Positions 20,115 through 62,693 of a stretch of 64,000 nucleotides of DNA are shown here, piece after piece. How positions within the stretch are numbered: position 1 is the first letter of the stretch; each line of letters begins with the position of its first letter. The stretch spans positions 1,376,001-1,440,000 of the forward strand of contig CAWFFH010000003.1 of assembly GCA_963815095.1 (NCBI GenBank). The letters are read 5' to 3'. The notes beneath the pieces are model-generated. The model saw only the letters and a list, made by a program, of their open reading frames with translations, was not told the DNA's origin and did not search any database. The position numbers were made by a program, and so were the translations under genes. This DNA is from Candidatus Bathyarchaeota archaeon (GTDB taxonomy: Archaea > Thermoproteota > Bathyarchaeia > Bathyarchaeales > Bathycorpusculaceae).

Positions 20115-21614
20115 ATGAGTAAAACTATAGCTTTAGCAATTGTTTTGGTCTTTCTAACAGCATCAAGCATAATTACCTTTTTGCCGGCCAAAGCTGAAAC
20201 TAAAGCCATCATTGTTCCAGATGATTACCCAACTATATCTGATGCATTGATTGCTGCTGCCGACGGTGACACCATATGTGTGAAGAAAGGAACCTACAAG
20301 GAGGGTACATTGGTGATAAACAAAACAGTGACCCTTATAGGCGAAGACCCAAAAACAACCATAATACAAGACCCCTGGTTAACTCCTCATTGGGACCCCT
20401 CTTCATCACCTTTTCCTCCACCAAAACCCACCACCATACAAGTTAAAGCAGACGATACGACGATTTCAGGATTTACTATCACAGGCAACGCTATTCCTCT
20501 AAGCATTCTTGCTAACAGAGTTCAAGTCATTGCCAGCATCATGGATAGTATTGAAGTGTATGGCAACAATAATACCATCAGCCAAAACAGCATAAAAACA
20601 TACGTCAAATGCGATGGTTCGTACAACAACTTTCTAAGTAATCCAATGATTGGCGGAGGGTACGACGGCTTTTTAGTTAATGGAGATTTTAACGTAATTT
20701 ACAACAATAGACTTTCGGGTTGTTCCATTGAAGTGAGGGCAAAAAATAATACCATAGCAAAGAACAGCGGTTATTTCTCTCTAAGCTTAACCAAGAGTTC
20801 TTCAAATAACGTAGTTTTAGGCAACCGAATAAGTGGAGACTTACTTCTGATGGGGTTCAACAATACTTTCTATGCAAACGAGATTACTTATGTGGGAATA
20901 GGTGGATTTCACGGTGGCACCACGGATGCGGCATATAATAGTTTTTTCCAAAATAACTTTGTTGGCAAAGCACCTGAATTTTCAGTTAGCACTAAAAATC
21001 CTGGTACTCTCTTTTGGAATAACGGTGGAAAAGGGAACTATTGGCGTAGTTTCAATGGCACCGACTCAGATACCGACGGGGTAGGAGACACAACCTACCA
21101 AGTATATGCCGAGTACCACTATTTTGATGGCGCCATTCGTGAAGATACAACCGTTTCTTTGGGTCAGGACAAATATCCACTCTTGTTAGCTTTTGAAATT
21201 GATAGCGTAAAATTTGATAAGTCCAAAATTACAATCCCTGTAGTTGTGTCAGAGTCGTTGTTAACTGTTCTTTCGCCTCAAAATAATAAAACCTACAATG
21301 TGAAAGATGTATCGCTTAATTTTTCAATATCTCAACTGGCTAAATTGGTAAGGTATAGTTTGGATGAACAAGATAATGTTACGGTCGCTGGTAACTTTAC
21401 GCTTACCGATTTAGCTAATGGTGTACATAATATAACATTTTATGCCGATGACCCGTTTGGGAATACCCAAGCATCAGGAATAATTGTTTTCAATGTAGAA
21501 GTTCAAGCGTCTTTTCCTGTTGTTCTTAGGTTCGCTGTTTCTGTTGGAGTAGTCGCCTTGGCGGTTGCTGGTTTGTTGGTATACTACAAAAAACACAAGA
21601 CGAAAACAGCTTGA
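20115..21614 (+). CDS. NosD-like beta-helix plus Ig-like surface protein with C-terminal TM anchor
   Basis: IIVPDDYPTI, GNYWRSF..DSDTDGVGDT, YSLD, GVHNITFYA, GLLVYYKKHK. Confidence 0.82.
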   Translation: MSKTIALAIVLVFLTASSIITFLPAKAETKAIIVPDDYPTISDALIAAADGDTICVKKGTYKEGTLVINKTVTLIGEDPKTTIIQDPWLTPHWDPSSSPFPPPKPTTIQVKADDTTISGFTITGNAIPLSILANRVQVIASIMDSIEVYGNNNTISQNSIKTYVKCDGSYNNFLSNPMIGGGYDGFLVNGDFNVIYNNRLSGCSIEVRAKNNTIAKNSGYFSLSLTKSSSNNVVLGNRISGDLLLMGFNNTFYANEITYVGIGGFHGGTTDAAYNSFFQNNFVGKAPEFSVSTKNPGTLFWNNGGKGNYWRSFNGTDSDTDGVGDTTYQVYAEYHYFDGAIREDTTVSLGQDKYPLLLAFEIDSVKFDKSKITIPVVVSESLLTVLSPQNNKTYNVKDVSLNFSISQLAKLVRYSLDEQDNVTVAGNFTLTDLANGVHNITFYADDPFGNTQASGIIVFNVEVQASFPVVLRFAVSVGVVALAVAGLLVYYKKHKTKTA

Positions 21615-21627
21615 TACTTATTGGGTG

Positions 21628-21666
21628 GCTGTTCTTTTTGGGGAACACTGTGTTCCTCTGGGAGAG
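21628..21666 (+). repeat. Intergenic element, copy 2
   Basis: gctgttctttttggggaacactgtgttcctctgggagag. Confidence 0.6.
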
Positions 21667-21705
21667 CTAAAAGTCAGATTGTTGCATACACAATTAGGGT
21701 TAATC

Positions 21706-22605
21706 ATGAATCGTCAGTCAAGCAGGGTAACCGTGTTTGCGGTGGTTCTTTTGGGTTTACTGTTGATTGGGCTCCAACCTGTTTTAGGTAGCACTGTGGG
21801 TCCAGTTTACCTCTCTGACTACATCACCGTCTACAGCCCCGTCAACACAACCTACAACACCAAAAACATCCTCTTCAACTACACTGTTGGCGTCGGCATA
21901 GGCATGCACATTTCCCTAAATTACACCCTGGACGGAACCCTAGCAGACGCCATGCCCTTCACAGTCATAAACCCAAACGAGCTGCACGTGATGTATTTAG
22001 CGCGTGGTCAAGTACAGTTGCCCGAGTTATCAGAGGGACAACATACTTTGACAATTGCATACTATACAGACTTTAACTTCTACAAAGATGCACATTCTTA
22101 CGTGGACACAATTCATTTTACCGTCGACTCAGCGGCACCCGACGTTGTTTTAGATGCAACCCCACCCAACATAACCATACTAACACCTAAAACAAACCAA
22201 ACCTATGCAGGCGCAGTCCTGTTAAATGTGCTCCTAAGCGAACTAACCACACCATTTACAGTAAACATAGACGGAAACAGAACCATAACTCTGCCAGCGC
22301 AAAACACCACTCTAACCGACTTAACTGTAGGCAAACATAGCCTCTCCATTAAAGCAAACGACCTTGTAGGAAACCGAGGGTACTCAAACAGAGTCAGTTT
22401 TTACGTGACTCAACCCACGTCAACACATACGCCAACCCCAACGCTTACACCAACTCCAATGCATACACCAACCCCAACGCCTATAATCCCAACAAGTAGC
22501 TTCAATTCGCAATTAATGCTTCCAATAATTGCGGTTGTAGTTTTAGCCGTTGTAATTATCTCTTTGTTGCTTTTTAGACTATATGAAAGACGAGTGAGAA
22601 AGTAA
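21706..22605 (+). CDS. Ig-like-domain surface protein with Pro/Thr linker; last 8 residues are encoded by the IS110 left end
   Basis: Signal peptide, YSPVNTTY, LSEGQHTL, PPNITIL, PTPT linker, TM; original tail RHRKTISQNQPNV* lies at 23853-23894. Confidence 0.82.
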   Translation: MNRQSSRVTVFAVVLLGLLLIGLQPVLGSTVGPVYLSDYITVYSPVNTTYNTKNILFNYTVGVGIGMHISLNYTLDGTLADAMPFTVINPNELHVMYLARGQVQLPELSEGQHTLTIAYYTDFNFYKDAHSYVDTIHFTVDSAAPDVVLDATPPNITILTPKTNQTYAGAVLLNVLLSELTTPFTVNIDGNRTITLPAQNTTLTDLTVGKHSLSIKANDLVGNRGYSNRVSFYVTQPTSTHTPTPTLTPTPMHTPTPTPIIPTSSFNSQLMLPIIAVVVLAVVIISLLLFRLYERRVRK

Positions 22606-22731
22606 CTCTTGCTGGCTAGTCCGGTGCCTTCTTGGCCCTTGCGGCCGATTTTTAGACTGGGCTTGACCTGAGCTGCTATAGAACTGGGCATTCGCCCGTA
22701 TGAGAGATTGCAGCCTGAAAGCCAGCAGGAG
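22606..22731 (+). ncRNA. Putative IS110 bridge RNA with target-binding and donor-binding loops
   Basis: Outer stem CTCTTGCTGGCT/AGCCAGCAGGAG. Loop 1: AGTCCGGT..ACTGGGCT with guides tgccttct and tttttaga. Loop 2: GCTGC..GCAGC with guides tatagaact and atgagaga. Confidence 0.75.
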
Positions 22732-22742
22732 AAAGAAAAAAA

Positions 22743-23789
22743 ATGGTGAGATATGTAGGAGTAGATGTTGGCAAAGCCAAATGCAGAGCAGCAATAATGA
22801 ATCAAACCGGCGCCATCGAGAGCGAATTCTTCTTTGAAAACAACACTAAAGGAATAGAGTCTTTGACGTCTATGCTAACTGTTGAGGATCAGGTTGTTAT
22901 GGAATCTACAGGGAATTTGTGGCTAAGCATATACGATGCATTGGATAATAGAAGCATTAAGGTAGTGCTGGCTAATCCATTGAAGACTAAAGTGATAGCT
23001 TCAGCGAAAATAAAAACTGATAAGGTGGATGCTAGGATTTTGGCGCATTTGCTGAGAGCTGATCTTGTTGCTGAAAGCTATGTTCCGCAAGGAAGCATAC
23101 GTGAAATGCGAGGTTTAGTTAGGCATAGGCTGAGCTTGGTTAGAATGCGCACGGCTATAAAGAACAAGGCACATGCAATCGTTGACAAGTATAGTTATCG
23201 TTGTGAATTCTCAGATATGTTCGGTAAAGGTGGAATTGCTTGGATGAGGTCACTGATACTTAATGAGCTTGATAGACTGATTTTGGAAAACCATCTTTCG
23301 CTGATTGAATCTATTAACTTGCAGGTCGGGATGGTGGATAAAGCTATTCGAAAAATCGCTTGTGAGGATGAGGATGTTCGGTTGCTACTTAGCTTGACTG
23401 GTGTTGATGTTTATGGTGCATTGTTGATTCATAGTGAAATTGGTCCGATAACGCGGTTTAGTAGTTATAAGAAGTTGATTTCTTGGGCTGGTTTGGCTCC
23501 GTCGGTGCATCAATCTGGGAATGTTGAGTATACTGGTAGGATTACTAAGCGTGGTTCTAGCTTGTTGAGGTGGGTTATGGTTGAGGCTGCGAGGACTGCT
23601 GTGCAGTATGATGAGAAATTGGCTGGGTTTTATGAGCGTGTGAGGGCTAGGCGTGGTGATCAGAAGGCTGCTGTTGCTGTTGCTTGTAAGATGCTTAAGA
23701 TTGTTTGGTTCATGCTAAGTAGGCGTGAGGTCTATAGCTGTGCTAATACGAGGCGTTATGGAGAAAAGCTAAAAAAGATTGGTGCGTAG
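22743..23789 (+). CDS. IS110 recombinase/transposase
   Basis: DEDD motifs YVGVDVGK, VMESTG, KTDKVDA; C-terminal WAGLAPSVHQSG, ITKRGS. Confidence 0.95.
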   Translation: MVRYVGVDVGKAKCRAAIMNQTGAIESEFFFENNTKGIESLTSMLTVEDQVVMESTGNLWLSIYDALDNRSIKVVLANPLKTKVIASAKIKTDKVDARILAHLLRADLVAESYVPQGSIREMRGLVRHRLSLVRMRTAIKNKAHAIVDKYSYRCEFSDMFGKGGIAWMRSLILNELDRLILENHLSLIESINLQVGMVDKAIRKIACEDEDVRLLLSLTGVDVYGALLIHSEIGPITRFSSYKKLISWAGLAPSVHQSGNVEYTGRITKRGSSLLRWVMVEAARTAVQYDEKLAGFYERVRARRGDQKAAVAVACKMLKIVWFMLSRREVYSCANTRRYGEKLKKIGA

Positions 23790-24209
23790 TTTGGTTTACT
23801 GGCTTTCAGGATAAGTTGGTCGCTGGCTTAGAGAACCGTCTTTCATGAGAGAAGGCATCGAAAAACAATCTCTCAAAACCAACCCAACGTTTAAAAAAAA
23901 GCATAAACTAAATTTTAAAGGAAAAGTTTGATAAACTCAACTTTCTTTGTATTGAAAAAACATCTAAGGATATTTTTAATTAAAAACTTTAGTTCTTTCT
24001 TTCTGTGTTTGTCTGTCTTGTGTGTGCTAAAGGAGAGAGAGAGAGTAGTAGTAAAAGTAGTTAGATGAAAGAAGTAGTCAATAGTAGTTAGTTAGAAGCA
24101 TAGGGGAAAAAGACTAAAATTTTATCCTTCAATAGTCTTTTGTTTTATTAAGAAGAAAATAAACATTATTAGATTTTTTCAATTAAACTGCTTTTAAAAT
24201 TCGACCTGG

Positions 24210-52300: not shown

Positions 52301-52972
52301 TTACCAATTTGGGGGATTCTCCAGAGAGTTGGGAGGTTTCCGTCTGCGTGCATATGCAGAAGCTAAGATAAGAACGACAAGAAGGATTACCCAAAGAATT
52401 AGGTAAAAGCCCGCGTTGGCTTTTAGGAGAGAAACAACAAAACCCCCTAAAGTGTAAATAGTCAACGCTGACACAACCGCTTTGCTTTCTCGTGGTAGCC
52501 GCTCAGGGAACGAACCTTTAAGCGCAAAGAATAAAGGAAACACAGTTGTGGCCAAAAGTCCGAATCTAAAAGCCAAAAATTCGTGGCGCAGCAAGAAAAT
52601 TGCGGCAAGAATCGGCAAATAGTAGGCCGTCCAAACTAATGCTATCCATGAAGGCTTCAGCAATTTTGTCCACATTGAATCCATAATTTCTCTGCGTACA
52701 AGCATGGAGTTATAAGCCTTCTTGAAAATCCAAGCAATCATGGCAGCGCCCACAACGCTCACCGCTGTGTTAACCAAGATCGCAACAACAAGAAAATAGC
52801 TATCTGAAAGCCCAAGGAATAGGATAATCGAGGGCAGAAAAGTTATGAGGACAATTTCAGCGGCGACTGCAGCATAACAGAGTCCCCAAGCTCGTTCTAG
52901 TATGTACTGTTCTATAACCAGGGCTTTTTCTGCCACACGCTTAATTTGCTCTGGTGAAACATTCTCGACCAC
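52301..52972 (-). CDS. Membrane protein co-transcribed with the wHTH regulator
   Basis: About 6 hydrophobic helices. Confidence 0.7.
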   Translation of the reverse strand: MVENVSPEQIKRVAEKALVIEQYILERAWGLCYAAVAAEIVLITFLPSIILFLGLSDSYFLVVAILVNTAVSVVGAAMIAWIFKKAYNSMLVRREIMDSMWTKLLKPSWIALVWTAYYLPILAAIFLLRHEFLAFRFGLLATTVFPLFFALKGSFPERLPRESKAVVSALTIYTLGGFVVSLLKANAGFYLILWVILLVVLILASAYARRRKPPNSLENPPNW

Positions 52973-53120
52973 ACTTTACCTCCTTAATTTCTATATCTGA
53001 ATGCAAAGGTTCTTTTGACTTTATTCTTTCTGGTACAAATTTTGTACTCGGGAAAGTTATTTATGAAACATCACTTTACTGTTTCAGACAATCAATCCGC
53101 TCAATCCAAGGTAATAACAG

Positions 53121-54038
53121 TTGATAGATACTGACAATCTTACAAAAAAGTTCGAGGATTTAACAGCCGTAGAAAACCTTACCCTTCACGTTAACGACGG
53201 CGAAGTATTCGGTTTTCTCGGCCCGAATGGCGCAGGGAAAACAACAACCGTCAGAATGCTCTGCTGCCTAATATCAAAGACAAGTGGAAGCGCCAAAATA
53301 GGCGAGTATGAAATAGGCAATAAGGAAGACGCGCTGAAAATCCGCAAAATCATCGGGTTTGTCTCTGATAACGTTGGATTATCTGAAAATCTGACAGCCT
53401 ACGACAACCTAGACTTTTTTGCAAAGATATATGATTGCCCGGAAACCCAAAGAAAAGAGAACATCAAGCGTTTTCTTGAGATGTTAGGGCTTTGGGATAA
53501 GAGGAATGTTTTGGCAGGAACTTTTTCTAAGGGTATGAAGCAAAAACTCGCCATAGCCCGAGCCCTCATTCATGAACCACAAGTTATTTTTATGGACGAA
53601 CCTACCGCGAATCTAGATCCTGAGGCTTCGAAAACAGTTCGAGATTTCATTCTTCAACTGAAAAAAGAGAAGAAGACAATCTTTCTAAACACCCACAACC
53701 TTGGCGAGGCACAGAGAATCTGCGACAGAGTGGCAATAATGAATACAAGTCTTAGAGCAATTGGTACCCCGCAGGAACTTGAAAGGTCCGTTAGTGGCAA
53801 GAAGACTGTTATCGGATTGGAACAGCAAGTAAACGGTGCTGTTTTGGTGGCATTGAAAAAACTGGCTCTCAAAAACCTGTCCAGCGGCGGCGACACTATA
53901 ACATTTGACGTGGAAAACCCAGACAAGGAAAATTCACCTGTTATAGAGGCTATAGTGCTAGCGGGAGGTCGTGTCAAATCAATCAATGTGGTAGGCTCAA
54001 CTTTGGAAGATACCTATCTAAAACTTGTGAGGAAATAA
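53121..54038 (+). CDS. ABC-2 type exporter ATP-binding protein
   Basis: GPNGAGKTT, FSKGMKQKL, MDEPT, NTHNL. Confidence 0.9.
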   Translation: MIDTDNLTKKFEDLTAVENLTLHVNDGEVFGFLGPNGAGKTTTVRMLCCLISKTSGSAKIGEYEIGNKEDALKIRKIIGFVSDNVGLSENLTAYDNLDFFAKIYDCPETQRKENIKRFLEMLGLWDKRNVLAGTFSKGMKQKLAIARALIHEPQVIFMDEPTANLDPEASKTVRDFILQLKKEKKTIFLNTHNLGEAQRICDRVAIMNTSLRAIGTPQELERSVSGKKTVIGLEQQVNGAVLVALKKLALKNLSSGGDTITFDVENPDKENSPVIEAIVLAGGRVKSINVVGSTLEDTYLKLVRK

Positions 54039-54040
54039 AT

Positions 54041-54784
54041 ATGCGAATCTCAAAGGCGTTGATTATAGCAGCTAGAGACTTCAAAATATTTAGGCGAGTA
54101 AGAAACGTCTGGACCTCGATAATTATTTTCCCAGTTGTTATTTCGGTTATGTTTCCGGTGATACTGGAGTATTTAACGATAAGGGGGAACCACGGACTCG
54201 CAGCGTCGGGTGTGCTTCCAAATTTGCTTACCTCCTTTTCTTTCTTTTTAGTTATAGGAGCAGCATACGTTCCCTTAGGGATTGCCTCTTACAGTATAGT
54301 CGGGGAGAAAGTGGAGAAGAGTTTGGAACCGCTTCTAGCCACGCCGCTAACTGATGGAGAAATATTGCTTGGAAAAGCCATCTCTGCAGTTATTCCAACT
54401 TTAGTTGCAATGTATGCGGCTGCGGCAGTGTTCATGGTGGGCATTGATGAGGTTACTTTCAATACGCTTGGCTACTATTATTTTCCAAACTGGAACATCG
54501 CCACTTTGCTGTTAGTTCTGATGCCGGTCGCCATTGTGATGAGTGTTCTGTTCAGTGTGATTGTTTCTTCGCGAGTTAATGATGTGCGGAGCGCTAACAG
54601 TTTTGGAGTTTTTATACTCTTTCCACTTCTGGGCATATACCTTCTCAGCGAGACAAGCATAATAACCCTTGACATAAACAGCCTGCTCATAATTTCAGGC
54701 ATTATCTTGGCAGTTGATGTGGCGCTTTTCTATGTTAGCACCAAGACTTTCCGTAGGGAGGAAATACTAACAAAATGGAAGTAG
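54041..54784 (+). CDS. ABC-2 type exporter permease
   Basis: SIVGEKVEKSLEPLLATP..EILLGK, FRREEIL. Confidence 0.88.
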   Translation: MRISKALIIAARDFKIFRRVRNVWTSIIIFPVVISVMFPVILEYLTIRGNHGLAASGVLPNLLTSFSFFLVIGAAYVPLGIASYSIVGEKVEKSLEPLLATPLTDGEILLGKAISAVIPTLVAMYAAAAVFMVGIDEVTFNTLGYYYFPNWNIATLLLVLMPVAIVMSVLFSVIVSSRVNDVRSANSFGVFILFPLLGIYLLSETSIITLDINSLLIISGIILAVDVALFYVSTKTFRREEILTKWK

Positions 54785-57748: not shown

Positions 57749-57799
57749 GCCGTGATTTTTTAAATGAACAAGCCATTAACTTAATATACTTTTCAAATG
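57749..57799 (+). promoter_or_regulatory. aor1 promoter block, duplicated at 60751-60801
   Basis: 42/51 nt identical to the block upstream of aor2, including TATA-like TTAATATA. Confidence 0.7.
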
Positions 57800-57833
57800 C
57801 CTTCTAACTTACAAGACATGAGGGGAAAAAAGC

Positions 57834-59747
57834 ATGTTTGCTTATGCGGGAAAAATTTTACATGTTGACCTCACAACAGGCCAAACAAGAACCGAGCCAC
57901 TGAGTGAACAGATGGCTAAAAGCTACATTGGCGGCATCGGTTTAGGTATTCGATTACTTATGGATAACTCAAAACCAGGCACAGACGCCTTCCACCCAGA
58001 CAACCCAATAATCTACTGTACAGGTCCGCTCAGCGGCACCATGGGTCCAACAGCCGGCAACGGCTATGCAGTAGTTTCCAAATCACCAGCCACGGGCGGA
58101 GTCGGGGAAGCAAAGGCACACGGGTTTTTTGGTCCAGACCTAAAACGCGCAGGATACGACGCCGTCGTAATCACTGGAAAAGCACCAAAATTATCTTACC
58201 TTTGGATTGACGATGACAAAGTAGAAATCCGAAACGGCGAATACCTCAAAAACGCCACAGTAGGCGATACAGATAACAAAATCCGAGATGAACTCGGAGA
58301 CTTCTATATTCGCGTATCAGCCATTGGCGAAGCAGGCGAAAAACTCTGCAGGTTCGCAGCCATCATAAACGACGAATTCCGAGCAATCGGACGCACAGGC
58401 ATGGGCGCAGTGATGGGCAGCAAAAACCTCAAAGCCGTCGCTGTAAGGGGAACAAAAGACGTTAACGTAGCTAACATGGAAGGCTTCAAAGAATACATCA
58501 AAATGATCCATGAACGAATGAAGGGTCCAGCTACCAAGAAATACAAGACCTTGGGTACACCTGAAAACGTACTAGTTTTAAATTCGCTTTCAGCTTTAGC
58601 AACAAGAAACTGGACGAACGCAACTTTTGAAGGCGCTAATAAAGTCAGCGGCGAATACTTAAACGAACATTATGTTAAGAAAATTGTCGGTTGTGCAACT
58701 TGCGGTATGCGTTGCGACCACATTGCCGTTGTTCCTGAAGGACCATACAAAGGATCAACTTCAAGACTAGAATTCGAATGCCTCTGGAGCATGGGGCCAC
58801 TTTGCGGTGTTGACCGTTTAGACGCAATTATCGAAGCAATGCGAATCGTCAACGAATACGGCATGGACGGCATCTCAATTGGTGTCGTTGTCGCATTTGC
58901 GATGGACCTATATGAACATGGCATAATCACCAAAGAACAAACTGATGGAATCGACCTCAAATTCGGCAACTCTGAAGCATTAATCGCTATAATCCACAAG
59001 ATTGGTAAACGTGAAGGTTGGCTTGGCAACATTCTTGCAGAAGGTGTTGAGAAAGCAGCCGAATTAATCGGCGGAGACGCATACAAATATGCATGCCACA
59101 TCAAAGGCTTAGAACTACCAGGCTACGACCTAAGAACACTAAAAACAGCCGCCCTAGGCTTCTCAGTATCATTCCGAGGTGCCTGCCACCTAAGAAACGG
59201 AGCATACTCACCGGACGTAAAAGGCAAAGTAAACCGCTTCAAAATCGAGAAAGGCAGAGGCAAAATGATCACCGACGAGAGCCACATGTACAACATCATC
59301 GACTCACTAATCGTCTGCAAATTCAGCAGAGGCACATACTACGATGGCTGGAAAGACCTAGCTAACTACTACACCCTAGCAACAGGCATCCCGATTACCC
59401 CAGAAGAAATGACTCAAGACGGCGACAGAATAGAAAACCTCGCACGCCTCTTCAACATACGTGAAGGCAAAGGCACACGCAAATACGACGATGTCCCCTA
59501 CAAAATAAAGAATTTCCCAGTACCCGACGAAGGACCAGCTAAAGGCGTCTGCGTTAACGACGAAGAAATGGCAATCGGCTTAGACGATTACTACGCTTCA
59601 AGAGGATGGACCGCCGATGGCATACCAACTGTTGAGAGACTTAACTCGTTAGGGTTAGGCGATTTAGCCTACATTGCCGAAGATGCAATGAAAGTCGCTA
59701 AAGAAGCCAAGCCTCAAGCAGCGGTTGCAACTGTGGGAGGAAACTAA
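57834..59747 (+). CDS. aor: Tungsten aldehyde:ferredoxin oxidoreductase family protein 1
   Basis: KSPATG, GRTGMGAVMGSKNLKA, CATCGMRC, EFE, GMDGIS, RGACH, LIVC. Confidence 0.92.
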   Translation: MFAYAGKILHVDLTTGQTRTEPLSEQMAKSYIGGIGLGIRLLMDNSKPGTDAFHPDNPIIYCTGPLSGTMGPTAGNGYAVVSKSPATGGVGEAKAHGFFGPDLKRAGYDAVVITGKAPKLSYLWIDDDKVEIRNGEYLKNATVGDTDNKIRDELGDFYIRVSAIGEAGEKLCRFAAIINDEFRAIGRTGMGAVMGSKNLKAVAVRGTKDVNVANMEGFKEYIKMIHERMKGPATKKYKTLGTPENVLVLNSLSALATRNWTNATFEGANKVSGEYLNEHYVKKIVGCATCGMRCDHIAVVPEGPYKGSTSRLEFECLWSMGPLCGVDRLDAIIEAMRIVNEYGMDGISIGVVVAFAMDLYEHGIITKEQTDGIDLKFGNSEALIAIIHKIGKREGWLGNILAEGVEKAAELIGGDAYKYACHIKGLELPGYDLRTLKTAALGFSVSFRGACHLRNGAYSPDVKGKVNRFKIEKGRGKMITDESHMYNIIDSLIVCKFSRGTYYDGWKDLANYYTLATGIPITPEEMTQDGDRIENLARLFNIREGKGTRKYDDVPYKIKNFPVPDEGPAKGVCVNDEEMAIGLDDYYASRGWTADGIPTVERLNSLGLGDLAYIAEDAMKVAKEAKPQAAVATVGGN

Positions 59748-59748
59748 A

Positions 59749-60261
59749 ATGGGCCGTCCCCAAGACAGAAAATTCGTAACAGCCGACCCAGACAAATGCA
59801 TCGGCTGTCTAGTATGCGAATATGCTTGCAGCATGGTTAACGAAAAAACCTTCAACCCAAACAAATCACGCATACGCGCCATGCGCCTAGGTCCACTAGT
59901 AAACCTCGCAGTTACCTGTAGGCACTGTGAAGACGCCTCATGCGTAGCTGCCTGCCCAAGAGATGCTCTAAAACAAGACTGTGATAGCGGTATAATCCGC
60001 GTTGACGAAAACGCATGCAATGGTTGCGGATGGTGTATTAGCGCATGCCAATTCGGCGCTATGAACATGCATCCAGACAAAAAAGTAGTATTTACCTGCA
60101 ACAGCTGCACCGACAACGAAACTAAAGAACCTCAATGTGTTAAATGGTGTCCCGAAGAAGCCTTATCATTTGTCAGCGCAGAAACATTATCGCAGAAATA
60201 TCGCCAGAAAGCAGTCAAGAACCTGTTCCAAACAGCTGAAGAAGCCAATAAAGCTAAATAA
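59749..60261 (+). CDS. 4Fe-4S polyferredoxin subunit (DmsB-like) partnering AOR1
   Basis: CIGCLVCEYAC, CRHC..C..CP, CNGCGWCISAC, CNSC..CVKWCP. Confidence 0.88.
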   Translation: MGRPQDRKFVTADPDKCIGCLVCEYACSMVNEKTFNPNKSRIRAMRLGPLVNLAVTCRHCEDASCVAACPRDALKQDCDSGIIRVDENACNGCGWCISACQFGAMNMHPDKKVVFTCNSCTDNETKEPQCVKWCPEEALSFVSAETLSQKYRQKAVKNLFQTAEEANKAK

Positions 60262-60322
60262 ACTCAGTTTAGCGCTTTTTTGCGCTACTTTTTGTTTTTT
60301 TTCGAAAATGTTTTCTATCGTT

Positions 60323-60610
60323 TTATCCGCCTGTCATCAGCGACATCAGGATTATGCTGTCACCGTTTTTTAGGGATGTGTTTACGCCTTGTAGCTGATC
60401 CATCAAAACACCATTAACCATTGCAACAAATGTTGCTTTCATTTCCTTCTTGACCGGGTCATAGACTTCCTGTATGAATTGTTTGCCGTAATCTCCGGCG
60501 ATTTTGCCCAGCAAATCCGACAGTAAACTGCCATTTGGAAGTGTGAATTCATCTTGGCTTGTGTTTGTGTAGGATTTAACCAAGCTGATATAGTGGACTT
60601 TAACTTCCAT
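60323..60610 (-). CDS. MoaD/ThiS/SAMP ubiquitin-like sulfur carrier
   Basis: MVNG, LKNGD, C-terminal GG. Confidence 0.87.
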   Translation of the reverse strand: MEVKVHYISLVKSYTNTSQDEFTLPNGSLLSDLLGKIAGDYGKQFIQEVYDPVKKEMKATFVAMVNGVLMDQLQGVNTSLKNGDSIILMSLMTGG

Positions 60611-60705
60611 TTCTTTTCCTTCTGCTCTGGTCTAATAATTGTTTTGGGGTTCTGATATTTCTTTTCTATTCTCGATATAGTTTTAGCCTTGAAAACCTCG
60701 ATTAG

Positions 60706-60729
60706 CGTTATGTGAAATTGTGCATAACG
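60706..60729 (+). promoter_or_regulatory. ModE-like palindromic operator
   Basis: CGTTATG-N10-CATAACG, i.e. CGTTAT-N12-ATAACG, between the divergent moaD-like and aor2 genes. Confidence 0.55.
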
Positions 60730-60750
60730 ACTCCTACATCCACGTGGAAA

Positions 60751-60801
60751 GCCATGACTTTTCAAACTAAGAACCCATTAACTTAATATATTGTTCAAAT
60801 G
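60751..60801 (+). promoter_or_regulatory. aor2 promoter block
   Basis: Paralogous to 57749-57799. Confidence 0.7.
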
Positions 60802-60821
60802 AACTAAATACTTTAAAACGC

Positions 60822-62693
60822 TTGGAGGAACAAGGTTTGCTAGGTTACGCGGGAACAATCTTATATGTTGATTTAACCACAGGCAAAACTCGCAAAGAAA
60901 AACTGAACGAGGAAGTCGCCAAAAAATACATCGGCGGCATCGGCCTTGGCATGGAACTCTATTTATCCAATTCAAAAGCAGGTGTGCATCCACTTAGCGC
61001 AGAAAACCCGCTTGTTTTAGCAATTGGACCCGTTTCAGGAACCATGTTTCCAACAGGCGGCAACGGACACGCCTTTATATCTAAATCACCCGAAACAAAC
61101 GGAGTTGGCGAAGCTGTAAGCCACGGCACCTTTGGCGCTGAACTAAAAAGAGCAGGATACGACGCAATAATCTTAACTGGCAAAGCTGAAAAGCCAACTT
61201 ACCTTTGGATTGACGACGACGCAGTCCAACTTCTTGATGCTTCACAAATCTGGGGCAAATCACCCGGCGAAACTGAAGACGCCATCAAAAATGAAACAGG
61301 CGACTATTACGTTCGGATAGCATCCATAGGTTTAGCAGGCGAAAAACTCAGTAAAATTGCCACTATTATTAACGAGAAAACCCGCGCCGCTGGCAGAACA
61401 GGTCTTGGCGCCGTTATGGGCAGCAAAAACCTCAAAGCCATCGCAGTTCGAGGCACCCGCGACATAGTTGTAGCGAAACCGGACGAATTCATGGAAATGG
61501 TAAAAGAATTCCACGAACGCATGAAAGGTCCAGCTGCACAGAAATACCGCACCTTAGGCACATCTGAAAACATCGTGATTCAAAACTCACTTTTCTGCAT
61601 GCCAACCCGCAACTTCAACAACGCTCATTTTGACAACGCTGAAAAAGTCAGCGGAGAAACCCTCAACGAACGTTACATCACAAAAATCATAGCCTGCAAC
61701 TCATGCGCTATGCGATGTGAACATGAAGCATTAATCCGCGAAGGACCCTACAAAGGCACCTTGGCAAGAATGGAATATGACAATATCTGGGCATTGGGAC
61801 CAAACTGTGGCGTAGACAAACTAGATGCCATAATAAAAGCTGCTGAACTCTGCAACTACTACGGCCTTGACGCAACAAGCGCAGGCGTAACCGTCGGTTT
61901 CGTGATGGACTGCCACGAAAAAGGTATCCTGACCCACGAAGACCTTGGCGGATTAGATGCTCACTTCGGCAACGCAGATGCACTCATCCAACTTATCGAA
62001 AAAATCGGCAAACGCGAAGGAATCGGCGACATGCTTGCTGACGGCGTGAAAGCGGCTGCACAAAAAATTGGCAAAGGCTCCATGGAGCTTGCTCAACAAA
62101 TTAAAGGCTTAGAAGCTACAGGTTATGATTTGCGATGCCTGAAAACTGCCGCTTTAGCTTCAGCAGTTTCGTTCCGCGGAGCAGACCAGAACCGCAGCGG
62201 CGCTTACAGCATTGATCTAAAAGGCAAAGTTGACCGTTTGAAAGCCGAAAAAGGACGCGGCAAACTCGTCAAAGACGCAGAAGACATCTACGCATTAATC
62301 GATTCCCTTATCATCTGCAAAAACGCCAAAGGCACCCTCTACAAGGAACTCGCCGACATGGCAAAACTCTACAGCCTAGTCACAGGCATCGAAATGACCC
62401 CTGAAGAACTCAGCCTTGCAGGCGAACGAATAAACACACTCGCAAAACTCATTAATGTCCGAGAAGGATTTAGTCGCAAAGACGACACATTGCCCTGGAA
62501 AGTAATGAACCAACCAATCCCCGACGAAGGACCCGTTAAAGGCGCGGTCGTAACTCAAGACGAACTTGACCTGCTACTTGACGATTATTATCAAGCTCGT
62601 GGCTGGAATGTCGAGGGTATTCCTACAAAAGCTAAACTCGAAGAATTAGGCATGCAAGATTACCAGACTATAATTGAAGGAAAAGAGGCATAA
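60822..62693 (+). CDS. aor: Aldehyde:ferredoxin oxidoreductase family protein 2 (divergent active-site motifs)
   Basis: GRTGLGAVMGSKNLKA, CNSCAMRC, GLDATS; has EYD and RGADQ in place of EYE and RGACH. Confidence 0.88.
   Translation: MEEQGLLGYAGTILYVDLTTGKTRKEKLNEEVAKKYIGGIGLGMELYLSNSKAGVHPLSAENPLVLAIGPVSGTMFPTGGNGHAFISKSPETNGVGEAVSHGTFGAELKRAGYDAIILTGKAEKPTYLWIDDDAVQLLDASQIWGKSPGETEDAIKNETGDYYVRIASIGLAGEKLSKIATIINEKTRAAGRTGLGAVMGSKNLKAIAVRGTRDIVVAKPDEFMEMVKEFHERMKGPAAQKYRTLGTSENIVIQNSLFCMPTRNFNNAHFDNAEKVSGETLNERYITKIIACNSCAMRCEHEALIREGPYKGTLARMEYDNIWALGPNCGVDKLDAIIKAAELCNYYGLDATSAGVTVGFVMDCHEKGILTHEDLGGLDAHFGNADALIQLIEKIGKREGIGDMLADGVKAAAQKIGKGSMELAQQIKGLEATGYDLRCLKTAALASAVSFRGADQNRSGAYSIDLKGKVDRLKAEKGRGKLVKDAEDIYALIDSLIICKNAKGTLYKELADMAKLYSLVTGIEMTPEELSLAGERINTLAKLINVREGFSRKDDTLPWKVMNQPIPDEGPVKGAVVTQDELDLLLDDYYQARGWNVEGIPTKAKLEELGMQDYQTIIEGKEA

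Follow-up and report, generated by a model that had tools for sequence, protein, structure and literature searches.

The 64,000-nucleotide stretch of DNA analysed here (the window; positions 1,376,001 to 1,440,000 of contig CAWFFH010000003.1 in assembly GCA_963815095.1, from a Candidatus Bathyarchaeota archaeon) contains at positions 22576-23849 a 1274-bp insertion sequence of the IS110 superfamily, one copy of its core counted. We consider it, with a probability of about 0.9, to be an autonomous insertion sequence that moves by RNA-guided recombination. Its copies, its boundaries, the conserved fold of its RNA and the covariation of the guides with the flanking DNA were observed directly. The known mechanism is unchanged by this finding; new is an archaeal bridge-RNA element with a hybrid layout, in which ends and guide order of IS1111 type are combined with an upstream two-loop RNA of IS110 type. 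A first-pass annotation had proposed an IS110 element with a bispecific bridge RNA, and all the coordinates and strings it gave were found in the sequence: the AGA repeats, the outer stem, tgccttct at 22625-32, tttttaga at 22649-56, atgagaga at 22700-07 and tatagaact at 22677-85.

We searched the genome (2.69 Mb, 9 contigs) for copies of the element. Four are present, among them C3:1060811-1062112, C4:1380-2679 and a fourth copy at C4:83619, and a single nucleotide polymorphism (window 23610) is their only difference. Each has CTTTTT-AGA as its left and AGA-AGGC as its right flank, and in three of them the right flank extends as AGGCATCGAAAA. The sequence TTTTTAGAAGGC occurs unoccupied once in the genome, where 0.53 occurrences are expected from composition; four of five such genomic sites are therefore occupied. 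Copies at sites unrelated to the loop-1 guides had been named in the first-pass annotation as the outcome that would speak against it, and we found 4/4 copies at a guide-matching site. The same element ends are joined to other genomic flanks in contigs from other sequencing runs; in a contig of run X2 the right end is joined to a fifth flank, again starting with AGAAGG. An unoccupied near-target, caacTTTTAGAAGGCATCGAAAAACCGC, which has one T fewer than the occupied sites (four and not five) and shares their extended right-hand sequence, lies on the minus strand of contig C4, roughly 2.8 kb away from the fourth copy.

The trinucleotide AGA is present at 22576-78 and again at 23850-52, and in the window copy the repeat is ambiguous over these 3 nt. 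In relatives both junctions carry TG (most of them) or AG at the corresponding two positions. Because two letters are repeated in the relatives and the element start and right flank have different letters at the following position, the core is the dinucleotide AG. The first-pass annotation had described a CT core on the strand opposite the recombinase gene, which holds for this element (AG on the + strand) but not for the clade in general, since most relatives have CA there (TG on the + strand). Inside the junctions lies a perfect pair of 10-bp subterminal inverted repeats, with a terminal extension of 7 nt on the left (agactat, core included, 22576-22582) and of 3 nt on the right (gag, 23847-23849). 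The left end (167 nt, 22576-22742) is longer than the right end (60 nt, 23790-23849). In some relatives, L022, L078 and L081 among them, the right flank starts with TGAG-TG followed by the sequence predicted from the guide, which looks like a tandem duplication of the last four letters of the end plus the core.

The recombinase encoded between these ends matches PF01548 at 4.8e-28 (residues 5-150) and PF02371 at 7.4e-22 (residues 213-298) in Pfam, and the NCBIfam model NF033542, "IS110 family RNA-guided transposase", with 243.8 bits (cut-off 140). Its homologues include the structurally solved recombinases of IS621 (E 6.1e-15, 58.9 bits, both domains) and ISCro4 (E 2.5e-14), so that the proposed IS110-type recombinase was borne out. 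In the alignment with IS621 the residues D8, E54, D93, D96 and S258 correspond to D11, E60, D102, D105 and S241, which form the composite active site of IS621 (Hiraizumi et al. 2024, PMC11208158; here and below, papers are cited from the parts of them that were available). Among 25 relatives D8, E54, D96 and S258 are invariant and D93 is nearly so. The transposase of IS4321 aligns over residues 118-331 alone (27%, 60.8 bits), with a score similar to that of IS621 (58.9 bits); these are pairwise scores and not a tree, and the protein comparison does not decide between placement in the IS110 and in the IS1111 group.

Upstream of this gene the 5' non-coding end folds into a compact RNA. RNAfold of 22576-22745 gives an outer stem enclosing two internal loops with an inner hairpin in each, exactly the two-loop fold predicted earlier, at an energy of -54.3 kcal/mol (z = -2.74; an equally good fold in 0/200 shuffles). 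Related loci for comparison came from genome collections (29) and from metagenomes (80, the best of 401 confirmed matches). A covariance model built from an alignment of 24 upstream regions matches the window at 22591-22739 (127.7 bits, E 3.9e-36) and gave 93 matches in 96 sources, at most one in each (the window, L005-L033 and L034-L099). All 93 lie on the recombinase strand directly upstream of the gene. A second search with the covariance model added 14 matches, with 19 sources. In the 85 distinct rows 98.4% of the cells are paired and changes on both sides are seen at 15/27 pairs, figures that lean towards the structure because the alignment was fitted to the model and the loci are related. 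In the controls 0/500 shuffles reached any of the measures, and slid controls were at most 41% paired. A search of Rfam with E values up to 10 gave no match on the 5' non-coding end and none that was bridge-RNA-like; weak matches to mir-924, sR28 and MESTIT1_3 lie elsewhere, far under their gathering scores, and are put down to chance.

The stems contain 322 G-U cells versus 8 A-C cells, which identifies the + strand as the folding strand and points to a transcript of it. This bears on the idea that the guides act in cis as single-stranded DNA, as in IS200/IS605 elements, and not as RNA. Subterminal structures do guide cleavage in that other insertion sequence family, although nothing specific to this element points in the same direction. 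The G-U excess is that of a + strand transcript, the recombinase belongs to a DEDD/serine family with demonstrated RNA guidance, and the structure is located 30 nt inside the end and not at the end. We regard guidance by single-stranded DNA as scarcely conceivable here.

The two arms of loop 1 reproduce the target site. Its 5' arm is complementary to the core and right flank, and its 3' arm repeats the left flank and core. We shuffled the 164-nt non-coding end 200,000 times: the 8-mer identical to left flank plus core appeared in 1822 shuffles, the reverse complement of core plus right flank in 2168, and the 8-mer of right end plus core, which is found in loop 2, in 3175. The first two occurred together in 20 shuffles and all three in none, so a chance origin of the three matches within the window is excluded. 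Across the related loci the guides follow the flanks. For the 3' arm, 5.8/7 letters match the left flank plus core as opposed to 2.18 in controls, in which guides were paired with the flanks of other loci (61 distinct pairs, 31 distinct guides), and agreement at positions 1-7 ranges from 0.77 to 0.98. The 5' arm matches the reverse complement of core plus right flank at 7.15/9 letters versus 3.77 (66 distinct pairs, 51 guides); three registers were permitted in its scoring, for real pairs and controls alike, and one group of loci has no letter opposite the first core base. We limited the effect of kinship by forming disjoint nearest-scaffold pairs that differ in a guide. Of 103 differences in the left-arm guide, both flanks track their own guide at 92 and one flank does so at 11. 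For differences in the right-arm guide both flanks follow at 76/145.

These results also bear on the possibility that the 5' structure serves solely as a cis-regulatory leader for the recombinase mRNA, masking for example the ribosome-binding site, and that the flank matches are a coincidence or a copied target. The 3' strand of the outer stem ends in GGAG, 12 nt before the start codon, and one 151-nt metatranscriptome contig that covers 22627-22776 (with two differing letters and one gap) starts within the structure and ends inside the gene. A leader would not be expected to track the insertion site, yet the arms change with the flanks over 31 and 51 distinct guides and in independent pairs, and the three 8-mers were reproduced in 0/200,000 shuffles. 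The guide-flank covariation thus refutes a leader as the sole explanation, which we consider very improbable; a regulatory side-role of the 5' structure is possible.

The last two letters of the loop-1 3' arm (AC) equal the first two letters of the element and not those of the right flank. When the last letters of this arm were compared with the element start, position 2 matched in 51/55 cases versus 38.1 after shuffling, with 0/2000 shuffles as high. In position and logic this extension corresponds to the handshake guides of IS621 (Hiraizumi et al., PMC11208158), and by this analogy the two letters may play the same role. For loop 2 we tried a handshake pairing between the 3' arm and the right flank as well and rejected it: position 1 agreed in 20/55 cases versus 15.7 shuffled (64/2000 as high), and position 2 was not above chance.

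Loop 2 carries sequences of the element ends. Its 3' arm equals the predicted circle junction over 8 nt, and the core letter in this arm is the same as the core letter of the junction (AG or TG) in 54/55 distinct combinations. For the 5' arm two of the five pairs covary with variants of the left end, namely 33/43 versus 22.5 and 30/43 versus 24.6, and shuffles were as high in 1/2000 and 7/2000 cases. A bispecific RNA, as proposed in the first-pass annotation, is thereby supported from both sides, since the loop-1 arms covary with the flanks and loop 2 has a contiguous match to the right end plus core and a discontiguous one to the left end. The annotation had called the match to the reverse complement of the left end imperfect, and this fourth match indeed falls short of an exact 8-mer.

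The steps of transposition proposed here draw on work on IS621 and IS1111 elements for RNA production, binding of the RNA by the recombinase, circle formation and cleavage chemistry. The left non-coding end would be transcribed, probably along with the recombinase mRNA, to give a bridge RNA of about 126-150 nt. The recombinase, a protein of 348 aa with a DEDD domain and a serine, would be directed by loop 1 to the target TTTTT-AG-AAGGC(A). Here the 5' arm would pair over 8-9 nt with the + strand of core and right flank, and the 3' arm over 7 nt with the - strand of left flank and core. Loop 2 would hold the ends that are joined in the excised circle: the - strand of right end, core and 1 further nt would pair with its 3' arm (8 nt), and the + strand of element positions 2-6 with its 5' arm. 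Exchange of strands at the 2-nt core common to target and donor would then lead to insertion without net duplication.

Several observations weigh against RNA-guided recombination as set out here. Neither an empty site (ctttttAGaaggc) nor a circle junction (ctttcatgag-AG-actatatgaaag) or other joint was seen in the contigs of four sequencing runs, which are contigs and not raw reads, so that parts they do not cover carry no meaning. Shares below 0.2 in runs X12-X20 were given no weight as a sign of habitat. No orthologous empty site was found among the 40 relatives searched, in which the gene at the left flank has no orthologue. The metatranscriptome contig is a weak hint: it fits a transcript that continues from the RNA into the gene and shows neither transcription, ends nor strand. 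One metagenome locus (L034), with guides identical to those of the window element and a protein 98% identical, is inserted at an imperfect site (CATTTTAG / AGCAAGG). In the loop-1 5' arm a shifted register is needed for some loci, and for the right-arm guide one flank alone follows at 57 of the 145 differences and neither at 12. Since the loci are related, the shuffle statistics overstate their independence. In loop 2, the switch between AG and TG cores follows clades, the 5' arm pairs with 5 nt only and not with the core, and both the arms and the element ends are nearly invariant, which limits covariation. For these three reasons the donor loop is supported less firmly than the target loop.

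Regarding the imperfect site of L034, the left junction is near position 230 of the locus and the right one after the gene, with the flanks CATTTTAG and AGCAAGGTT; an off-target insertion or a later change is possible. The empty-site search matched just a low-complexity linker and one paralogue in the archaeon's own genome. This Pro/Thr-rich linker of the interrupted gene (window 22440-22481) matches many relatives' loci and draws unrelated contigs, and its matches reflect low complexity and not homology.

The thin covariation of loop 2 and the 5' arm without core pairing speak for an alternative in which the RNA selects the target alone, in excision and insertion, and the protein reads the 10-bp repeats. 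Loop 2 would then be structural or protein-binding, and its likeness to the ends would be kept for other reasons. The ends are IS1111-like, and Siddiquee et al. (PMC11187229) argue that end recognition may differ in the IS1111 family. This alternative is at odds with the contiguous 8-nt match of the 3' arm to right end, core and one further letter and with the core letter that switches along with the core in 54/55 combinations. It also leaves aside the two covarying pairs of the 5' arm, with their low shuffle counts, and a haloarchaeal homologue in which the ends differ and the corresponding arm contains that element's own right end plus core. We therefore judge a purely target-selecting RNA unlikely and retain the bispecific bridge RNA.

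Table 1. Features of the insertion sequence and its insertion site (window positions).
Feature	Position	Strand	Evidence or remark
Interrupted host gene, membrane-anchored protein	21565..22605	+	Open reading frame
Left core copy AG	22576..22577	+	Common to target and donor, crossover point; repeated at both junctions in 4/4 genomic copies
Insertion sequence body, 1272 bp	22578..23849	+	Four genomic copies, differing by one single nucleotide polymorphism
Left subterminal inverted repeat atgaaagacg, 10 bp	22583..22592	+	Kept as (T)TATGAAAG in 85/93 related loci
Bridge RNA core, 126 nt, outer stem 22606-17 / 22720-31	22606..22731	+	RNAfold, covariance model, covariation
Loop 1 (target-binding) 5' arm ugccuucu	22625..22632	+	Complementary to + strand of core and right flank (AGAAGGCA)
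Loop 1 inner hairpin	22633..22647	+	Consensus helix 3, 99.3% of cells paired
Loop 1 3' arm uuuuuAG + AC	22649..22657	+	Equals left flank plus core, so pairs with - strand
Loop 2 (donor-binding) 5' arm uauagaac	22677..22684	+	First five letters complementary to element positions 2-6 (ctata)
Loop 2 3' arm u-augag-AG-a-uu	22699..22709	+	Equals right end (atgag), core and first letter of left end
Recombinase gene, 348 aa, DEDD RuvC-like domain and Tnp domain	22743..23789	+	Open reading frame, Pfam, NCBIfam
Right subterminal inverted repeat cgtctttcat, 10 bp	23837..23846	+	Kept as CTTTCATGAG in 82/93 loci
Right core copy AG	23850..23851	+	Read in window sequence and four-copy comparison

We compared the element with characterised systems. 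With IS621 (Durrant et al. 2024, PMC11208160; Hiraizumi et al. 2024, PMC11208158) it shares the recombinase domains with aligned catalytic residues and an RNA whose two internal loops, target before donor, are encoded upstream of the gene, in the left end. In both, the 2-nt core lies within each arm, the target loop has a long arm of 8-9 nt and a shorter one of 7 nt, and a 2-nt extension of the 3' arm matches the other DNA partner, as in handshake guides. The IS621 RNA runs from the junction of right and left end into the left end. In contrast to IS621, the arms come in reverse order in this element and in every relative examined, and the discontiguous donor arm is the 5' arm and not the 3' arm. 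The subterminal repeats measure 10 bp instead of 2-3 bp, no 5' stem-loop precedes the loops, the paired core has 126 nt compared to the 177 nt of the IS621 RNA, the host is an archaeon and protein identity is low (58.9 bits). Since the arms are in the order opposite to IS621, the first-pass annotation was right in stating an inversion; the reversed order is real but not new, having been published for IS1111-type elements (PMC11187229).

Siddiquee et al. 2024 (PMC11187229) report that seekRNAs of IS1111 type have the top-strand match placed 5' to the bottom-strand one, an order that is reversed in the IS110-type ISEc21. Our element follows the IS1111 order if the top strand of that paper, where the order is known from the text, is the transposase-sense strand. 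IS1111 types (ISEc11, ISKpn4, ISPa11) are defined there by subterminal repeats with 7- and 3-bp extensions, and both the repeats and the asymmetric 7/3-bp extensions are present here; the protein length, too, is within their range of 330-350 aa. Subterminal inverted repeats have 7-17 bp in IS1111 elements, whereas IS621-like elements have none or 2-3 bp. Different from IS1111 types, in which the non-coding region lies downstream of the gene, it is located upstream in 93/93 model matches. Furthermore, many IS1111 RNAs have multi-loop donor-binding structures (Durrant et al., PMC11208160), while the loops here are simple internal loops. ISMtsp17, an IS1111 relative with an upstream non-coding region, and ISHvo10, with long non-coding regions on both sides, combine IS1111 features with an upstream region and were compared by their description in PMC11187229 only. 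ISEc21 targets a conserved coding stretch (IS3-family transposase genes), similar to the recurring coding motif targeted here, and differs in its IS110-type guide order, bacterial host and target. In IS4321 (L115) the non-coding region contains 12-nt subterminal repeats and a segment (1657-1668) complementary to the right flank. A second guide could not be placed there with confidence, and our covariance model R1 gave no match on this locus.

As far as the cited parts of the literature go, bridge and seeker RNAs have so far been characterised in bacterial elements. That the present system is archaeal, as claimed in the first-pass annotation, agrees with the small-subunit rRNA, which is best matched by the archaeal Rfam model (1486 bits). 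The closest copies of the element are located in metagenome-assembled genomes labelled Bathyarchaeia, and the family comprises 401 confirmed metagenome matches and 1663 protein relatives. We found the bridge RNA in 15 of 151 genomes sampled from the class, the window's own genome included, a patchy spread as expected of an insertion sequence. A cultured haloarchaeon also carries a homologue: plasmid pHSR2-01 of Halanaeroarchaeum sulfurireducens (L114, record 52390-54564) encodes an IS110-family protein that is 47% identical. Model R1 gave no match on this locus and the layout was therefore read by eye (locus positions 387-409, 465-500 and 1765-1789). The 3' arm again contains the sequence of the left flank, gggccttg, and the right flank, tgtttagac, reappears as its reverse complement, gtctaaaca, in the 5' arm. 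The ends differ and have imperfect subterminal repeats; the element's own right end plus core is present in the corresponding arm. Given these shared arm-flank matches, the layout spans at least three archaeal classes.

An earlier count of archaeal IS110 recombinases exists (662; 10.1101/2024.06.21.599552), and the available part of that source contains no description of archaeal IS110 bridge RNAs that we could find. The Evo-PIN/COMPASS preprint (10.64898/2026.10.21.760802) reports 86 covariance models of bridge RNAs found next to IS110 recombinases in bacterial and archaeal intergenic regions, together with guide-DNA covariation. Its text, as far as available, names no archaeal cluster and no reversed order, and the RNA family described here may be among the 86 models. 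Our literature search found no paper combining IS110 with Bathyarchae, and further searches likewise found none; supplements lay outside the search, and the phylogeny and ISfinder tables in those of PMC11187229 and PMC11208160 may list relatives of the clade. The locus anchors a large archaeal family with a readable guide code, comprising 31 and 51 distinct natural guide variants and a working covariance model. It can be used in the annotation of archaeal genomes and in tracing the move of the RNA gene between element ends, and it offers compact orthologues for testing (a 348-aa protein and an RNA of about 130 nt).

The insertion is located 14 codons upstream of the natural stop of the host gene, whose tail RRHRKTISQNQPNV is swapped for RLYERRVRK-stop. 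This replacement is encoded by the first 30 nt of the element, so that the anchor and a basic tail are retained. In three of the four copies the element lies 10-14 codons ahead of the stop, in genes encoding a C-terminal hydrophobic helix and a basic tail. The host proteins end in ...LLLF|RRHRK... or RRRK..., and the target encodes L-F-R-R. The fourth copy (C4:83619) is inserted in the same motif, but the longest frame over the restored site has 27 aa and is on the opposite strand. The start of the element (actatatgaaag, in relatives actttatgaaag; window 22578-22589) resembles an archaeal TATA box. The TATA-like stretch ctatatga overlaps the left subterminal repeat and is about 24 nt ahead of the first paired base of the RNA (22606); judged from its appearance, the repeat may double as a promoter.

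A wider interpretation, which we put forward tentatively and consider rather doubtful, is that the clade (Bathyarchaeia, Nitrososphaeria and the relative in Halobacteria) represents an evolutionary intermediate between IS110 and IS1111 adapted to archaea. The repeat would double as a TATA box without need for a junction promoter, and the guide would target codons of membrane-anchor tails, where a replacement tail and stop would make insertions nearly harmless.

Elsewhere in the window, at 57749-62544, there are three families of direct repeats with a spacing of about 3.0 kb and 73-82% identity, which suggests a tandem duplication of a gene block of about 3 kb.

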